In this document: positions 7,700 through 61,918 of the stretch, piece after piece | Layout: every line of letters begins with the position of its first letter | Numbering within the stretch: the first letter of the stretch is position 1 | Assembly (NCBI GenBank): GCA_033580375.1 | Contig: GCA_033580375.1_4527.1 | Length of the DNA: 64,000 bases | Reading direction: 5' to 3' (one strand) | From: a phage | Position numbers and translations under genes: made by a program | The notes under the pieces: generated by a model | Seen by the model: the letters and a program-made list of their open reading frames with translations, nothing else | Databases searched by the model: none | Told to the model about the DNA's origin: nothing

Positions 7700-7748
7700 C
7701 TCCAGTAGTTGATATGTCTATAATAACACAACTACTGGAGAAGTAAAC
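7700..7748 (-). promoter_or_regulatory. early promoter embedded in 12-bp inverted repeat that can sequester the downstream SD
   Basis: minus GTTTAC-tt-CTCCAGTAGTTG-[loop with TGTTATTAT]-CAACTACTGGAG-aacaaa-ATG; 3' arm contains GGAG of the SD. Confidence 0.6.
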
Positions 7749-36129: not shown

Positions 36130-36434
36130 TATAATGTTCTCTCAAATTTGTGGAAGCATTTACGGCATTTCAATTTCAAGTTATCAGTGGTCCAGTTAAC
36201 CAATTGGACTTGGATAGTTCCACATTCCGGACATGGATGTTTTGCTGCCGATTTGGCAGCATTTTCACGTCGTTCAACCATTTTCATTATTTCGTTCCAT
36301 GCCGGAGGAACGAACTCTTCTTCACCATGGATTTTATCTCGCTGAACAAATTCAATCTTTGAACTATCATCAATAAACTTAACTAAGCCATGATTAGTGT
36401 TCATATCAATATCCTCTAGAAGACGTAGGTTCAT
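36129..36434 (-). CDS. zinc-ribbon protein
   Basis: 101 aa; CPECG...CRKC Cys4 arrangement. Confidence 0.45.
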   Translation of the reverse strand: MNLRLLEDIDMNTNHGLVKFIDDSSKIEFVQRDKIHGEEEFVPPAWNEIMKMVERRENAAKSAAKHPCPECGTIQVQLVNWTTDNLKLKCRKCFHKFERTL

Positions 36435-37375
36435 TATAACACCTCAATGGCATTTCGTAAACCGTCCGCTTTCGCATTCAGAGCTTTTAACGATTTAGTC
36501 TGTTCTTTAATCTGAGCTTCGACTTCTTTCAGACGAGATTTGAGATATTCACGTTCTTCGCTCAGGTTATCAACCTTTTCAACTTTAGGTTCTTTAGGCT
36601 TATACTCGTTAGGATTCTTCAGTTTAATTCGAATTCGAGAACTGAATAACATTGAACCGTTATCTTCGGTTTCGTCGAACATTTCAACAACATCCATAGT
36701 CTGTAACATCACGCAGAGTTTATAAGACAACGAACGAATAGTTTTGTTGTGCTTATTAATTTCTTCGGCTTTCATGGTACCGAGATTACGTGAGTAGTAA
36801 TAAGGAACCTGGATATCAATTGATAATGATGCGTTACCATTACCAGTTGGTTTGAATACTGCAGTAACCCAATCTTTAACATGAACTTTATTTGTACGAC
36901 CATCACCGCCTGTGAATAATTTACGAGAATGTTTAAAAAGCATATTCACTTGTTTATTGAATTCACAAGCAAATTTATCAGCAAATTTAGTTTCAGGAAT
37001 GGTAGATAACCAATCAGCCAAATGAGTCTTTTTAACATCATTAACAATAGTGAATTCAACCAAATCGGTTTTAGATGTCACAGATTTAATAAAGCTCGGT
37101 TTCATAAAGTTTTTAATGTTATCACGAGCTACAGTAGAAGATAATAAACGAGAACGTTTGAACCATTGAAGCAGCGTCCCTAATGAATGAGAATACGCAT
37201 TCTGAGTATCTTTACAGATATGATTTTCTTGGCCTGTGTATGTACCAAAATCTCGAAGAATACCACTTACTACATCTCGGTGTGGAACATCAAATCCTAG
37301 TGCACCAGAAGCGCGCTGAGCATGAACGTTAGCGATAAGACCGGCAAAGTATTCAATGTAATGTGAACGCGTCAT
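36434..37375 (-). CDS. hypothetical protein with C-terminal coiled coil
   Basis: 313 aa; heptad-like C-terminus; preceded by conserved promoter cassette. Confidence 0.5.
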   Translation of the reverse strand: MTRSHYIEYFAGLIANVHAQRASGALGFDVPHRDVVSGILRDFGTYTGQENHICKDTQNAYSHSLGTLLQWFKRSRLLSSTVARDNIKNFMKPSFIKSVTSKTDLVEFTIVNDVKKTHLADWLSTIPETKFADKFACEFNKQVNMLFKHSRKLFTGGDGRTNKVHVKDWVTAVFKPTGNGNASLSIDIQVPYYYSRNLGTMKAEEINKHNKTIRSLSYKLCVMLQTMDVVEMFDETEDNGSMLFSSRIRIKLKNPNEYKPKEPKVEKVDNLSEEREYLKSRLKEVEAQIKEQTKSLKALNAKADGLRNAIEVL

Positions 37376-37403
37376 AATATTTTCCTCTCGTTAAGATAGA
37401 AAG

Positions 37404-37435
37404 ATTATACTCCAACCATCCTTGGTTGTAAACTG
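37404..37435 (-). promoter_or_regulatory. early promoter GTTTAC-N18-TATAAT with inverted repeat in spacer
   Basis: minus GTTTACaaccaaggatggttggagTATAAT; 26-nt core identical to copy at 38423..38448. Confidence 0.6.
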
Positions 37436-37437
37436 AT

Positions 37438-38397
37438 TTATGATTTTAATGCATTCATTGCGTTAAAAAGTTTAGAGTACTGCAACTGGAGATTGGTCAC
37501 CACCTGTTGAGCATCACGAAGCTTAGCTTGTGCTTTATCAAGTTCAACGGATAGTTGGTCTACAGTGGCCTTGATTTGATTATAATGGTAGTCTTCGGCA
37601 GGAAGAAGGTCATTAGAAACATTTAGTTTTACTGCAGACAGTTTGCACACATTTGGCAAACCTTTAAACATACCAGATTGTGCTGGAGAATATGCACCTA
37701 GAACCTCTGCATTACCGACTGGTGTTGCTGTAATATTGCCTTCAAACAATGCATTTTCCTTTTTAAGATTTTGATAGTATTCAGAGTCTTTGTGCCACCA
37801 TGGTGCAGGAACCTTTTTACCAATAGATACACGAGCTTGGATAGCGATATGGCCCTTATTCTTGATAAGGTCGACAATATTAAGCTCACGAGAATAAATT
37901 GCTTTAATCTGGTGGATATTATCACCTAAAACTTCCAACGCTTGGTGGAATACACGAGCAACGTTATCATTCTTAGGTTTATACGTAAGAGTGAACTCAT
38001 TCTCACTGATAACCATGATTTCCAACTTATCGTAAGTATATTTCAAATGTTTCATGTTAATTGCTTGAGGACGAATACGAGAAGCAATGGCCATCAGATT
38101 GTTAAGGTTATTCCGGAACTGCTTAGCGAAATATTGTCCTTCACCGTCAATACAAAAATTACGAAGTTTCTGTTTGGCTAATAAACGGCTGAACTCACCA
38201 TTTTTAATGAACTCTTTAACGGGTGTGTTAGTAACGCATTCAAATTGAGTAAACTTACGAGAAGTAATCCCATAATACGAACAGACTTCCTCAATCTCTT
38301 CAGGAGTCTTTACAGGCATACGGATAGGATTAGGTCCTGGAGTATATGCGTTCGAGGTAAATTCTTTGATAAGTTCTCTACGTGTAATAAAAGACAT
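37438..38397 (-). CDS. hypothetical protein with C-terminal coiled coil
   Basis: 319-aa ORF. Confidence 0.5.
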   Translation of the reverse strand: MSFITRRELIKEFTSNAYTPGPNPIRMPVKTPEEIEEVCSYYGITSRKFTQFECVTNTPVKEFIKNGEFSRLLAKQKLRNFCIDGEGQYFAKQFRNNLNNLMAIASRIRPQAINMKHLKYTYDKLEIMVISENEFTLTYKPKNDNVARVFHQALEVLGDNIHQIKAIYSRELNIVDLIKNKGHIAIQARVSIGKKVPAPWWHKDSEYYQNLKKENALFEGNITATPVGNAEVLGAYSPAQSGMFKGLPNVCKLSAVKLNVSNDLLPAEDYHYNQIKATVDQLSVELDKAQAKLRDAQQVVTNLQLQYSKLFNAMNALKS

Positions 38398-38422
38398 TTT
38401 ATATTCCTCATGTTGAAAAAAT

Positions 38423-38452
38423 TATTATACTCCAACCATCCTTGGTTGTACA
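38423..38452 (-). promoter_or_regulatory. early promoter, duplicate of 37404..37435 cassette
   Basis: attatactccaaccatccttggttgta identical 26-mer. Confidence 0.55.
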
Positions 38453-39448
38453 TCATTCCTTAAGAAGTTTTACTACTTGAATAAGATTAGCTCGTTCTGT
38501 TTTATTTTTACCGTTTAAGCCTGCTAATCGTGAGATTTCATCGTCAGTCTGTTGAATAGTTACATTAAGTTCGTTAATCAAAGCTTCAAAGTATTTGATT
38601 TGCTCAGCATGTTTTGATTCAAATTTCTGAACCGGAATAACGTCTTGGTTCAGTTCATCAATAAGGTCTTTAAGAGCATCTTCTTGGTTGATATCGTATT
38701 CAACTTCTTTTATTTCTTCAACGAGCTCGTCTTTATATCTAACGTCTTTTAGTCCTGGTGCTGGTCCTGAAATCTCTTCTTTAAGAGTACAAACATACCC
38801 AATACGGTATCCAATGCCGTCTCGCTTGATATCAACTTCGTCGATAAATCCACAATGTTTAAGTCCAGAGCCGATTATGTCAAAATATCCTTGACGTCGT
38901 CCTTCAAACGTTACACGAACTACTAAGACAGTTTTGCCACCAACCTTTTGAAGCTCACATTTATAAAAGTCTGTTGAACCTGAATAACGTGGATGAGTTT
39001 TAAAGTTCATCTGACGATCTAGGCCCATTTGTAAACGTGCTGTTACAGCCATAAAACGTGTTTGGTTCTCGTTAAGATGAGCAACGATCCATTTCAAAGG
39101 CATTTTACACTGTTCACGACCGAACAAGTCGGTATGTCCTAGATTACGCAGGATGTTGTTAGAGTTAATCATCGACAGAACGTTAAGTTTATTCAGCGCG
39201 CTGAAGATTCCATCAGCCATTGATTTTCCATAACCTTTACACGCTTTAATAAGTGCTCGCGGCAGATTAGTATAGATTTCGGACGGCATATGAAAATCAA
39301 ATTTACTAGTCAGTAATTGATGAACCTGGATAGCAATTTGCTCATAATTAAGTGCTCTGCGATCGTTATGGTCTTTAAACCACACTTTAATCTGTGAAGC
39401 ACATAAACCGTTAATTTCATGTTTTACCGCATCAGATGTAATGCTCAT
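38453..39448 (-). CDS. hypothetical protein with C-terminal coiled coil
   Basis: 331-aa ORF. Confidence 0.5.
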   Translation of the reverse strand: MSITSDAVKHEINGLCASQIKVWFKDHNDRRALNYEQIAIQVHQLLTSKFDFHMPSEIYTNLPRALIKACKGYGKSMADGIFSALNKLNVLSMINSNNILRNLGHTDLFGREQCKMPLKWIVAHLNENQTRFMAVTARLQMGLDRQMNFKTHPRYSGSTDFYKCELQKVGGKTVLVVRVTFEGRRQGYFDIIGSGLKHCGFIDEVDIKRDGIGYRIGYVCTLKEEISGPAPGLKDVRYKDELVEEIKEVEYDINQEDALKDLIDELNQDVIPVQKFESKHAEQIKYFEALINELNVTIQQTDDEISRLAGLNGKNKTERANLIQVVKLLKE

Positions 39449-40045: not shown

Positions 40046-40094
40046 CTCCAGTAGTTGATAGGTCTATAATAACATAACCATAGACCTTGTAAAC
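40046..40094 (-). promoter_or_regulatory. early promoter with inverted repeat (aggtctat / atagacct)
   Basis: minus GTTTAC...TGTTATTATAGACC; arm contains SD of downstream gene. Confidence 0.5.
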
Positions 40095-40379: not shown

Positions 40380-41372
40380 TCATTTCAGTAAAGTTACTTC
40401 GGAGATTTCCTCCCAACCATCTTTATCAGTTGAAATAAAATCTGCTACATAAAGAGCCGTACGTAATGATACATTGCGAAGACGAGATATGTTAGCCTTC
40501 ATCCAGGACAATGCTTTGTACGTTTCTGCATCCGTCAGGCCACGTTTCTGCATCATGTCAGTAGATAATATTACATCTTCAACTCGGACCATAATCTCTT
40601 CATTAGAGTGTACTCCAAGGTCCAAATACACTGAACGAGATACTAAAGCTTGAAGGTGTGGAGCAAGTTTCGAACCGCGTTCTAACTCTTTATCGATATC
40701 AACGTTTGTAATGAAAACGATAGTACCTTCAAACTCAAATTCTTTATCTATACCCTTATCATCAAGATAAGATGATGCAGTGCTCCAGCAAACTTTGCGT
40801 TTATCGCCAGTATCTAATGCTGCTTTAAGAAGGTTCAAGATGTCCATATCAGAGAATACGTCAACGTCATCGATTAAGAGAACGCTGTCTGCATCACGGT
40901 TGAGCCAAAGTTGTTCGTAAAGGCCAATACCAGAGATTTTGCCATTAATGCTTTTGTATTTGATGAAACCATTATCATTAGCATTATTAAGCGCTTTATC
41001 CAGAGAATATGTCTTACCAATACCGGCTGCACCTGAAATAATGAGTGAACGAATTTTGCCATCGATAATGCCATTCGTCATCATGTTCATTACTTTAAAG
41101 CGTTTGTTGATACGAGTTTTCATATCTTCAGCGTTTTCAACAACTGCAACTGGTGATGTCTCAACTCCTTCCATTACGATGTCTGATTTGAAGACCCATA
41201 CTCCACGTTCAGAACCATCAATCATAACGAAAATTTTACCGTCACCTAAGTGGGAACATTCAGGATTAAGCTTTGCCGGGAACCATGTCTTTGTGGCAAC
41301 ATAAGAACCAGAGATTTCGTTATTACGATAGATACCTTTTTTGATTTGAACGTTGAACATTTTATTCTCCAA
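40380..41372 (-). CDS. P-loop NTPase (AAA-like)
   Basis: 330 aa; Walker A SGAAGIGKT and Walker B LLIDDVD. Confidence 0.55.
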   Translation of the reverse strand: MENKMFNVQIKKGIYRNNEISGSYVATKTWFPAKLNPECSHLGDGKIFVMIDGSERGVWVFKSDIVMEGVETSPVAVVENAEDMKTRINKRFKVMNMMTNGIIDGKIRSLIISGAAGIGKTYSLDKALNNANDNGFIKYKSINGKISGIGLYEQLWLNRDADSVLLIDDVDVFSDMDILNLLKAALDTGDKRKVCWSTASSYLDDKGIDKEFEFEGTIVFITNVDIDKELERGSKLAPHLQALVSRSVYLDLGVHSNEEIMVRVEDVILSTDMMQKRGLTDAETYKALSWMKANISRLRNVSLRTALYVADFISTDKDGWEEISEVTLLK

Positions 41373-41430
41373 ATTTACTCATTTCGTTTCGATAGGTCTA
41401 TAATAACATGTTTAAAGCAAAAGTAAACAA

Positions 41431-41649
41431 TTATTTGCGACGAGATTTTTTGGTAAGAGGTTGAAAGAACACTGCTTTACCAGCAGGAGTCAAAGTGACT
41501 CGTAATGCATTACCGATTCCTAAGGATGCTTTAACTAGACCTTTAGCTTTCAGTTCACCGAATGCTTGACGTTGGTCTGCATCACGAGTGTTAACCATAA
41601 GACCTTTATCACCAGCTTCACGAATCATTTCTAACATTTTGGTTTTCAT
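41431..41649 (-). CDS. hypothetical protein
   Basis: 72-aa ORF. Confidence 0.4.
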   Translation of the reverse strand: MKTKMLEMIREAGDKGLMVNTRDADQRQAFGELKAKGLVKASLGIGNALRVTLTPAGKAVFFQPLTKKSRRK

Positions 41650-41730
41650 TTTGTTTTCTCCTCTTGTTTTGATAGGTCTATAATAACATATCCTAAAAGC
41701 ATGTACACTACTTTTTAAAAATATTTTGAC

Positions 41731-41752
41731 CCCCTAAAGGGCCCGAAGGCCC
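41731..41752 (-). terminator. UUCG-tetraloop hairpin after gene stop (terminator-like)
   Basis: minus RNA GGGCC-UUCG-GGCCC then U-rich tract. Confidence 0.45.
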
Positions 41753-41755
41753 TTA

Positions 41756-42745
41756 TCATTTATAGTATGAATTGTGGTTTTCTAAGTAGACTTGCTCAAG
41801 GAAGTCATCCCAGAAACTCATATCTACTTTTTGCTGCATACCGTTCTTAGCAGCTTGTTCTGCCGCATGTTCAACTTGGTCAACGATATCTTCTAGGAAT
41901 TCTTGTACGGTTTTAAACGTATGTTTACCAAGCTTAACATCGAGAATAAATGGAGCATCCTGAAGCGGGTAAACCAGGTCGCCGGTTTTGTAAATTTCTA
42001 AGAGCTGAAGTCCACCACGGCATGCGTGACTCAATGCTTTCCAATCAATACCTTCATTGGCTTCTGCCTTACGAGCACGTTCACCGTAGTTCTCTTCAAG
42101 TTTAACCAGGATGGCATTGAACTCTTTGTTAGTTAACGTATCTTGGAATTTACGGTCTAACAGATTATAGAATGTTTGCTTACCTGTTTTCTCGTTTTCG
42201 GTTTCAACCCATGAAGCAAATTCACCTACAGGCAGAACATTCTTCATATGTGATAAACGAATTACTGCACCATTATCAAAGTATTGTCCCCATTCATTAG
42301 AACGTTTAAGGGCTTGACGAAGAACAGCCAGTCGAGAACCCTTGACACCGTATTTAGAAGCTTGCTTACGGACATACCCTAAATAAGATTTCATGTTAGT
42401 AGTATAGAAACGAGACCTGTTATCTTGAATATACTTCCATACATCAGGCAAATCAGATTTAACTACTAGACTTGGTGGAGTGTGAAGCATATCTAATGCG
42501 ACAGTTTCACCATCTGCAGCTAGTTTAAAGAAATATTTGAGACTATATAACTCATGGTCCACGTCGTCTTTTGTGTTCTTAGAAGATGTGTTATTCGTGT
42601 TCTTGCTCATATGTTCTTTAACGTTACCGGTCAAAATATCACGAGCATGAGGGACATAAATTTCTTTAAAATCGACGTCAGATTCAGGAGTAGACGTTCC
42701 ATAAAGGTGGCTACCAAAGTAGCCTTTCATAATTGTTTTCATCAT
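41756..42745 (-). CDS. nucleotidyltransferase-fold protein (Pol-beta superfamily)
   Basis: 329 aa; N-terminal GSHLYGTSTPESDVDF resembles the G-S...D-x-D minimal NTase signature. Confidence 0.45.
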   Translation of the reverse strand: MMKTIMKGYFGSHLYGTSTPESDVDFKEIYVPHARDILTGNVKEHMSKNTNNTSSKNTKDDVDHELYSLKYFFKLAADGETVALDMLHTPPSLVVKSDLPDVWKYIQDNRSRFYTTNMKSYLGYVRKQASKYGVKGSRLAVLRQALKRSNEWGQYFDNGAVIRLSHMKNVLPVGEFASWVETENEKTGKQTFYNLLDRKFQDTLTNKEFNAILVKLEENYGERARKAEANEGIDWKALSHACRGGLQLLEIYKTGDLVYPLQDAPFILDVKLGKHTFKTVQEFLEDIVDQVEHAAEQAAKNGMQQKVDMSFWDDFLEQVYLENHNSYYK

Positions 42746-43215
42746 TTAGCCTTATATTCAAGAGTAGGACAGACTTTTTCTTTACGAGCTTTAAGGTATT
42801 CACCTATTAATGATTTCTTACGTTCAATAGGCTCAAGTCCATTTTTAATTCGTTCTTGGTTTTGTGCAATGAGCTCAACTTCTTTATAATACTTCCGCTC
42901 TCTGTATAAGTCGATTAGCCATGGTATGCCTAATACTAAAACTATAGAAATACCAACACATAATGCAATGAATAAAACACCTACACCAATTGAGGCCGGA
43001 ACTAATGTCCATAAACTACTAAAGACAAAGAATTTAGTTAAAATTTCCTGGCCAATGATTGTGGCTGCTGCTAAAATCGCAAATCCAATAATCGAAACAA
43101 ACAATACAGGGAGAAACGTTTTCCAAAAATAAGCACACAGCGTTTTCGGACGATTCCATGTACTATTGAACGCGGCATAAATTTTAAAGTGCCAAGAGTT
43201 TTCATTGATAATCAT
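42742..43215 (-). CDS. membrane protein
   Basis: 157 aa with three or four hydrophobic helices. Confidence 0.45.
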   Translation of the reverse strand: MIINENSWHFKIYAAFNSTWNRPKTLCAYFWKTFLPVLFVSIIGFAILAAATIIGQEILTKFFVFSSLWTLVPASIGVGVLFIALCVGISIVLVLGIPWLIDLYRERKYYKEVELIAQNQERIKNGLEPIERKKSLIGEYLKARKEKVCPTLEYKAK

Positions 43216-43224
43216 AATAATTCC

Positions 43225-43767
43225 TTATTTCAAAGTCGGGATAACAGAATCAAGATAAGCTTTAAGAGCAACAGCTTCGTCTTTGGTAAACGTAGTAATA
43301 TGTGAACGTAAATCATCAATTTGGCGAATAACTACGACATCACCGTCTTCATAAGAAGGATTAACGCCCAAGACAGTTGTAGAGTCAGGGTTGGCCAGAT
43401 TTGTAATAAAAGCATTACGGCATTTAGCCCATTGAAGTTTGGCCTTTTTGGCTGTTTCAGATTCAATGAATTCTTTCACCTTAGTGACGAATGTTTTCCA
43501 ATTATTAATAGAAAAACATTCGTCTTCAGTTTCGATATTAACCCCACTATAAAGTCCGTGATAAAAACGAACTTGAAGGTCTTCATCAATGTTAATTACA
43601 GATGCATGGCCTGGTGGATTTAGTTTCAAAATCTTGTCCAGTTCCATAGGAAGAATAGTAACAGCATCATCTTCTTGTGTCAGAACGTAAGCGTAACCAC
43701 GTTTTTCGATACATAAATCACCAAACAACTCAGTTGTTTCAATTACAGTTTTCATATTATTCACCAA
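43225..43767 (-). CDS. hypothetical protein
   Basis: 180-aa ORF. Confidence 0.5.
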   Translation of the reverse strand: MVNNMKTVIETTELFGDLCIEKRGYAYVLTQEDDAVTILPMELDKILKLNPPGHASVINIDEDLQVRFYHGLYSGVNIETEDECFSINNWKTFVTKVKEFIESETAKKAKLQWAKCRNAFITNLANPDSTTVLGVNPSYEDGDVVVIRQIDDLRSHITTFTKDEAVALKAYLDSVIPTLK

Positions 43768-61761: not shown

Positions 61762-61838
<77 letters not shown>

Positions 61839-61844
61839 AATATA

Positions 61845-61918
61845 TGACCCAGACCAGATTCGAACTGGTAACCTTTCCCTTATGAGGGGACTGCTACTAA
61901 CCGTTGAGCTACAGGGCC
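61845..61918 (-). tRNA. tRNA with CAU anticodon (Met or Ile2)
   Basis: hand-folded: T-arm ACCAG-TTCGAAT-CTGGT, anticodon loop CTCATAA, acceptor GGCCCTG/CTGGGTC with one mismatch; no encoded CCA. Confidence 0.55.

Follow-up and report, generated by a model that had tools for sequence, protein, structure and literature searches.

The DNA analyzed here is a stretch of 64,000 nucleotides from a phage contig (GCA_033580375.1_4527.1, assembly GCA_033580375.1), referred to as a whole as the window, and our interest lies in an interval where an earlier note, made from the letters alone, had placed a P-loop ATPase next to a protein with a nucleotidyltransferase (NTase) fold. The interval holds three open reading frames (ORFs), at positions 40380-41372, 41431-41649 and 41756-42745, all of them on the minus strand, which carries every gene of the region. 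An 8-kb stretch around the locus shows 97.6% identity with phage phiC120 and 96.6% with RB69, and the source phage is an RB69-like T-even phage. According to the RB69 annotation, the equivalents of the three ORFs are nrdC.10, RB69ORF102c and nrdC.11, respectively; the RB69 orthologues of the window NrdC.11 and NrdC.10 are NP_861793 and NP_861791, in that order, and the window proteins are about 99% identical to those of RB69-type phages.

The earlier note had recognized no T4 counterpart for the pair, but both proteins have one. T4 NrdC.10 (NP_049708) shares 77% identity with the window ATPase over 320 residues and T4 NrdC.11 (NP_049709) shares 78% with the window NTase over its full length, and their genes are adjacent in T4, separated by a gap of 114 bp. 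Gene order, strand and the nrdC-tk early region are common to T4 and the window. The RB69 lineage carries a 72-aa ORF between nrdC.11 and nrdC.10, correctly placed by the earlier note, whereas in T4 the two genes are adjacent without this insert; likewise, the gene upstream of nrdC.11 encodes a membrane protein in the RB69 lineage and the homing endonuclease mobD in T4.

Considering that tblastn searches matched 1312 phage records with the ATPase and 1543 with the NTase, both are real genes and not chance ORFs. The pair is already known from T-even phages as nrdC.10 and nrdC.11, so that the finding is real but largely ordinary; the product of nrdC.10 had earlier been described as an AAA ATPase and that of nrdC.11 as a nucleotidyltransferase of COG3541 (Nolan et al., 2006; PMC1524935). 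Many phage records in GenBank call the homologues of both genes 'thioredoxin', a label apparently propagated in error from the prefix nrdC in the gene names.

NrdC.11, a nucleotidyltransferase of the RlaP family

The nrdC.11 gene (41756-42745) encodes a protein of 329 residues, or 328 if the second ATG (42742) is used, in which an N-terminal NTase domain (approximately residues 1-95) precedes a HEPN-like helical bundle at the C-terminus, into which a beta-hairpin subdomain is inserted. The Pol-beta nucleotidyltransferase family RlaP (PF10127) is the sole Pfam family that scored above its cut-off (48.7 bits against 23, E 1e-12), with residues 7-137 covering positions 23-144 of the 249 in the profile, and PF10127 is precomputed on all the listed NrdC.11 homologues. 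The N-terminal GS...DVD signature reported in the earlier note is present, with G11-S12 at 42710-42715 and D23-V-D25 at 42671-42679 (together the first part of the motif, 42671-42715). It is completed by a second part, D61-V-D63 at 42557-42565, in which D63 is the predicted third metal-binding carboxylate and lies on strand 62-68 of the AlphaFold 2 (AF2) model as assigned by DSSP.

The alignments used to assess invariance were built from representative and profile searches, and an exhaustive search with NrdC.11 yielded 3216 representative clusters. Neither the 53 representatives (34-52% identity) nor the 46 further homologues show any change at G11, S12, D23, D25 or D63, and D61 is nearly invariant in the same two alignments. 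The decisive check named in the earlier note, alignment of the motif with catalytic aspartates, was performed with hhalign against 23 canonical bacterial RlaPs (E 1.9e-5), and it set GS on GS, DVD on DYD and D63 on the Asp of 'lDvnGWD', so the three invariant aspartates fall on those of the canonical enzymes. The AF2 model (predicted local distance difference test, pLDDT, 88.7) shows the topology expected for an NTase, with beta1, GS at a helix N-cap, DxD opening beta2 and D63 on a later strand, followed by long helices, the last of which spans residues 309-328; this C-terminal bundle matches HEPN-type domains. RlaP membership, catalytic triad and fold are therefore established for NrdC.11. 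Significant alignment with canonical RlaP extends over only about 83 N-terminal columns, so that the protein is, as judged from its sequence, a member of a distinct and longer RlaP subfamily. A permissive hhalign comparison of the C-terminal domain gave a collinear, non-significant alignment (E 0.32), in which the invariant K236 and R243 are set on the canonical K...YALRP.

The other families named as candidates in the earlier note (CCA-adding, cGAS/CD-NTase, OAS and MNT) gave no match above cut-off. PADLOC returned no family for the NTase, no CD-NTase or OAS family of Pfam matched it, no PolyA_pol head domain, the mark of CCA-adding enzymes and poly(A) polymerases, was detected in Pfam or NCBIfam at E up to 0.1, and the NCBIfam MntA model reached 12.9 bits against a cut-off of 60 (E 0.076). 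The CCA-adding, cGAS/OAS and MNT identities were dropped for want of a profile match. NCBIfam and PADLOC scans of six proteins gave nothing useful, and sequence searches of the PDB with NrdC.11 and NrdC.10 singly, and with the NrdC.11 family profile, produced chance-level matches only. The nearest solved structures to NrdC.11 are the kanamycin nucleotidyltransferase ANT(4') and Hailong HalB, at 9-18% identity and a template-modeling (TM) score of about 0.3; the substrate of the former is an aminoglycoside and the latter polymerizes dATP, and neither is related to NrdC.11 by sequence family.

The chemistry of the RlaP family has been described for two Pseudomonas enzymes, PfRlaP and PaRlaP, in a preprint of December 2025 (10.64898/2025.12.29.696909). 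These proteins add one or two nucleoside monophosphates to the 3'-OH ends of RNA, with Mn2+ as the best metal and a preference for the 5' half of a cleaved tRNA mimic, whereas neither DNA nor protein serves as a substrate; the same study places T4 NrdC.11 in the RlaP family as a member of unknown function. In the crystal structure of PfRlaP a helical domain follows the NTase domain, and its last helix is packed back against the latter. NrdC.11 has in common with PfRlaP and PaRlaP the Pfam family, an N-terminal Pol-beta NTase domain with aligned GS, DxD and D, and, as far as its AF2 model shows, a helical C-terminal domain that follows it. It differs from them in being about 65 residues longer, with a large insertion at approximately residues 95-210 that includes the beta-hairpin.

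The genomic context of the subfamily in bacteria points in the same direction. An RNA-repair-type neighbor occurs in 32 of 80 bacterial loci that encode NrdC.11-type proteins (33-52% identity), and in 18 of 41 when fully flanked loci are considered. These neighbors are canonical RlaP, often abutting downstream, RtcB, Ro60/TROVE, T4-type PNKP and Hen1, and RNA-repair neighborhoods, including RtcB, are shared with the Pseudomonas RlaPs. What is new here is that such neighborhoods are found for the NrdC.11 subfamily itself, beyond the Pfam family as a whole. RB69, for its part, encodes pseT (Pnkp) and rnlA (RNA ligase 1), located about 80 kb from nrdC.11. Both the bacterial context and the presence of these two genes are established.

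We also observed that a canonical RlaP of 250-270 residues (PF10127, 253 bits) directly follows the long NrdC.11-type gene on the same strand in 15 of the 71 bacterial loci with enough downstream flank. The tandem of a long NrdC.11-type gene and a canonical RlaP occurs in 22-23 of the 80 bacterial loci overall (L161-L240 in our numbering, for example L222, 8001-9767), and the two RlaP types may work together in bacteria.

NrdC.10, its neighbors and the early transcription units

The earlier note had given the ATPase 330 residues, a length that corresponds to a start at TTG 41372. Translation most likely begins at ATG 41360 instead (nrdC.10, 40380-41360, 326 residues), because a GGAG lies 8 nt upstream of this ATG, the TTG overlaps that Shine-Dalgarno (SD) sequence, and most homologues are 325-326 residues long and align from the Met at 41360. 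RB69 nrdC.10 is annotated at 312 residues; promoter, SD and homologues favor 326. The ATPase motifs themselves stand as the earlier note read them, with Walker A (GAAGIGKT, G110-T117 in 326-aa numbering) at 41010-41033 and Walker B (LLIDD, with D164 and D165) at 40866-40880.

The NrdC.10 model (pLDDT 89.2) can be divided into a conserved N-terminal beta domain (residues 1-64), a disordered linker (66-73), and an AAA+ core made up of an alpha-beta-alpha nucleotide-binding base and a C-terminal helical lid. Residues G110, G113, G115, K116, T117, D164 and D165 do not vary among 33 homologues, and neither do N219 (FITN), R242 (SRS) and R295/R300, to which roles as sensor 1, arginine finger and sensor 2 can be attributed by sequence position only. 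The alpha-beta-alpha base with helical lid, Walker A/B and the putative sensor-1 Asn are common to NrdC.10 and the AAA+ ATPases compared with it (MCM, MoxR NorQ/CbbQ, NtrC-type activators, Hda/DnaA, RFC and ORC), and the SRS box resembles the SRC arginine finger of clamp loaders. No Pfam AAA family reaches its cut-off, and NrdC.10 fits none of the specific clades tested (clamp loader, DnaA/initiator, MoxR, MCM and NtrC), with no hidden Markov model above cut-off and no clearly best structural match. NrdC.10 is thus a genuine AAA+ ATPase without a clade, and it looks catalytically competent. Our literature search found no experimental work on the gene.

In distant T4-like lineages the ATPase has a different recurrent neighbor. 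In 42 of 64 assessable distant loci a UvsW-type helicase is encoded no more than 5 kb downstream of it, directly adjacent in 15; this helicase aligns with T4 UvsW (E 3e-27), and homologues of UvsY, UvsX and gp32 are found nearby. These recurrent neighbors are the only lead to the function of NrdC.10, and from them we tentatively infer that its most likely role is in DNA replication or recombination and not in a partnership with the NTase. A tblastn search with a distant, uvsW-linked ATPase recovered the same 1308 records, labeled 'hypothetical' or wrongly 'thioredoxin'. A 335-residue protein with no PHROG match is encoded between ATPase and helicase in 16 loci (within L088-L160, uncultured viral contigs; for example L103, 1846-4347).

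We then considered whether the ATPase and the NTase constitute a module. The ATPase gene closely follows the NTase gene, in the same orientation, in 37 of 79 viral NTase loci, all 37 of T-even type, and it is absent within 10 kb in the other 42. Across the 37 loci the gap between nrdC.11 and nrdC.10 ranges from 7 to 2272 bp, one overlap of ORF boundaries aside. Seen from the ATPase, an NTase-like ORF is present within 10 kb in 9 of 80 loci, seven of them of T-even type and two weak and non-adjacent, and none of the 80 bacterial NrdC.11-type loci contains the ATPase. The counts of NTase and ATPase records diverge by genus (286 against 149 for Klebsiella, 59 against 121 for Vibrio), and therefore each gene is present without the other in many phages. 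A similar picture emerges from six T4-like genomes, of which three carry nrdC.10 and all six give nrdC.11 domain matches (Nolan et al., 2006; PMC1524935). The nrdC.10-nrdC.11 pair is not a conserved module, and its adjacency is a lineage-specific synteny confined to T-even-type phages.

Within the window the two genes are also set apart by transcription signals. A GC-rich hairpin (GGGCC-TTCG-GGCCC) followed by a T-run, terminator-like in the terminator scan and on direct reading of the sequence, begins at the nrdC.11 stop codon (41725-41760, minus strand). Downstream of it, the promoter scan placed a T4-type early promoter for the 72-aa ORF at 41671-41707 (-35 TGTACA, extended -10 TGTTATTAT), and another precedes nrdC.10 at 41391-41427 (-35 TTTACT, extended -10 TGTTATTAT), both on the minus strand. 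These promoters contain a 19-mer, ATGTTATTATAGACCTATC, whose three exact copies and six near copies (2-3 mismatches) in the window all lie on the minus strand; the number expected by chance is 0. The exact copies (40057-40075, 41391-41409 and 41671-41689) precede nrdC.8, nrdC.10 and the 72-aa ORF, respectively, which suggests a recent duplication of a promoter cassette; the near copies are at 7711, 28780, 29799, 48169, 56456 and 63383. Alignment of the nine sites with their upstream context revealed the T4 early-promoter consensus GTTTACa and the extended -10 TGTTATTAT, followed by an SD and an ATG. A reading of these intergenic repeats as MotA boxes of middle promoters was dropped, since the nine-site alignment fits the early consensus and a MotA pattern search missed the sites.

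A scan of the window detected no such early promoter before nrdC.11. The gene upstream of it encodes a predicted membrane protein of 157 residues (RB69p104, phrog_944; 42742-43215, minus strand), and its stop codon overlaps the nrdC.11 start (ATGATGA), an arrangement that places nrdC.11 in the transcription and translation unit of the membrane-protein gene. Of the 79 viral loci, 41 encode a homologue of this protein no further than 1.5 kb from the NTase, which makes it at least as constant a neighbor of the NTase as the ATPase is. By these signals, nrdC.11 and nrdC.10 lie in separate early transcription units in the window.

The 72-aa ORF (RB69ORF102c; 41431-41649, minus strand) matches phrog_6001 (1e-42). 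Just 138 phage records contain it, and JS98-like phages carry it at another locus, which marks it as a lineage-specific insert. No significant match was obtained in Pfam (E up to 10) or in the PDB, and in structural comparison it resembles only MarR/IclR regulators, below significance (E 0.5-1.1); the product is possibly a small winged-helix protein.

Other genes of the window, all on the minus strand, deserve mention. Three consecutive ORFs of 313-331 residues at 36434-39448 (nrdC.3, nrdC.5 and nrdC.6 types, one of them DUF7235) each have a coiled-coil-like C-terminal segment, and they fall into three different PHROGs of unknown function. A mobD.1 homologue lies at 43225-43767, with matches to both y05I-like putative transcription factor domains of Pfam (N-terminal, 4.9e-41; C-terminal, 8.4e-17). 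Two adjacent phage tRNA genes, tRNA-Arg (TCT) and tRNA-Met (CAT), are located at 61762-61918.

Interpretation of the interval

Taking the interval as a whole, we favor with moderate confidence the explanation that it consists of three separately promoted early genes of the variable nrdC-tk region, namely an RlaP-type NTase that would act in RNA repair, an orphan AAA+ ATPase and a lineage-specific 72-aa insert, with no two-gene module among them. The tRNA-repair module proposed in the earlier note is upheld in one half: a repair role for the NTase agrees with the RlaP family and its bacterial neighborhoods, and had already been published, whereas the pairing with the ATPase does not hold, its adjacency being of T-even type only.

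T4 tRNA repair by Pnkp and RNA ligase 1 (Rnl1) counters the anticodon nuclease PrrC. Rnl1 requires a 3'-OH and a 5'-phosphate, the same ends that an RlaP product supplies. From homology with the Pseudomonas RlaPs we infer the substrate, the product and the biological role of NrdC.11 in phage infection as follows. Two metal ions would be held by D23, D25 and D63, and the enzyme would extend broken RNA, tRNA halves for instance, by one or two untemplated nucleotides at the 3'-OH. It may in this way restore nucleotides taken off by anticodon nucleases of the RloC type, and the phage Pnkp (pseT) and RNA ligase 1 (rnlA) would heal and seal the ends. Unlike the classical PrrC case, NrdC.11 would be of use only against nucleases that, like RloC, take nucleotides out, and nrdC.11 differs from the genes of the Pnkp-Rnl1 pathway in its distance of some 80 kb from them and in having no reported genetic link with them. 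This RNA-repair reading is already in the literature: phage RlaPs were predicted to put back the nucleotides cut out by RloC-type nucleases before ligation (Iyer et al., 2021; PMC7824862), and the family has since received its biochemistry (10.64898/2025.12.29.696909).

Several observations weigh against this explanation. The biochemically characterized RlaPs belong to sequence cluster 1a and NrdC.11 to cluster 5, and the C-terminal two-thirds of NrdC.11, outside the significantly aligned N-terminal columns, have diverged from canonical RlaP. In the window and in the 79 viral loci the NTase gene is not adjacent to an RNA ligase gene and no ligase is found within 10 kb, while PNKP lies within that distance in four of the 79. 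On laboratory hosts T4 can dispense with nrdC.11-mobD.3, as would be expected of an accessory function, and this deletion provides no positive phenotype (PMC9825161). As for the ATPase, its link with UvsW is guilt by association inside a conserved replication gene cluster of uncultured phages, and the same-strand adjacency of nrdC.11 and nrdC.10 is maintained across many T-even genera despite variable inserts, which could reflect a functional link specific to that lineage.

Such a link is the substance of the alternative in which the two proteins form a two-component module in T-evens, with the AAA+ protein remodeling or presenting damaged tRNA or ribonucleoprotein to the NTase, or regulating it, for tRNA repair or anti-defense. 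In agreement with this idea, both are early genes, and T4 and 37 T-even-type loci have nrdC.10 directly after nrdC.11 in the same orientation. We nevertheless consider it improbable, given the loss of adjacency outside T-even-type phages, the missing ATPase at the bacterial loci, the many phage genomes with one gene only, the variable genes inserted between the two (here the 72-aa ORF), the hairpin after nrdC.11 with a promoter of its own for nrdC.10, and the UvsW-type helicase as the recurrent ATPase neighbor in other lineages. That last association suggests another account, in which NrdC.10 would be a widespread AAA+ accessory factor of the T4-type recombination/replication machinery, for example a partner or loader of UvsW, that in T-even phages simply has nrdC.11 as a neighbor; in this specific form we regard it as unlikely, although less so than the module.

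Two further alternatives concern the activity of NrdC.11. Its architecture, an NTase domain with a HEPN-like bundle, resembles that of kanamycin NTase, its C-terminal domain has no significant alignment to canonical RlaP, and there is the faint match to MntA, all of which would fit nucleotidylation of a non-RNA target (protein, small molecule or DNA) in the manner of aminoglycoside NTases or MNT antitoxins, with the diverged C-terminal domain setting the substrate. The MntA score is far below its cut-off, the Pseudomonas RlaPs used neither DNA nor protein, the bacterial neighborhoods of the subfamily are those of RNA repair, and the collinear though non-significant alignment sets K236 and R243 on canonical residues, so we rate this option as slightly less probable even than the module. 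The remaining proposal, also raised in the earlier note, is that NrdC.11 makes, mimics or depletes a nucleotide signal (of the cGAS/CD-NTase, OAS or Hailong HalB type) against host defense. Here the likeness is limited to the generic NTase fold, for which KNTase, LinB and 3c18 score similarly; PADLOC gave no matches, RlaP was the family above cut-off in place of any CD-NTase or OAS family, and the bacterial members stand beside RtcB, Ro60, PNKP, Hen1 and a second RlaP and not beside defense effectors, which leaves this the least probable of the explanations, and a very improbable one.

Both genes have been annotated since 2003-2006, and the family of the NTase and its likely chemistry were published between 2016 and 2025, so the finding adds little in itself. 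T4 and RB69 carry an RlaP beside the classical Pnkp/Rnl1 tRNA-repair enzymes, which bears on the question of whether phages can repair tRNAs with an excised nucleotide, a loss long thought to defeat phage repair. NrdC.10, for its part, is among the more widely conserved T4-like genes of no known role, and its association with uvsW outside the T-evens offers a concrete hypothesis for its function.

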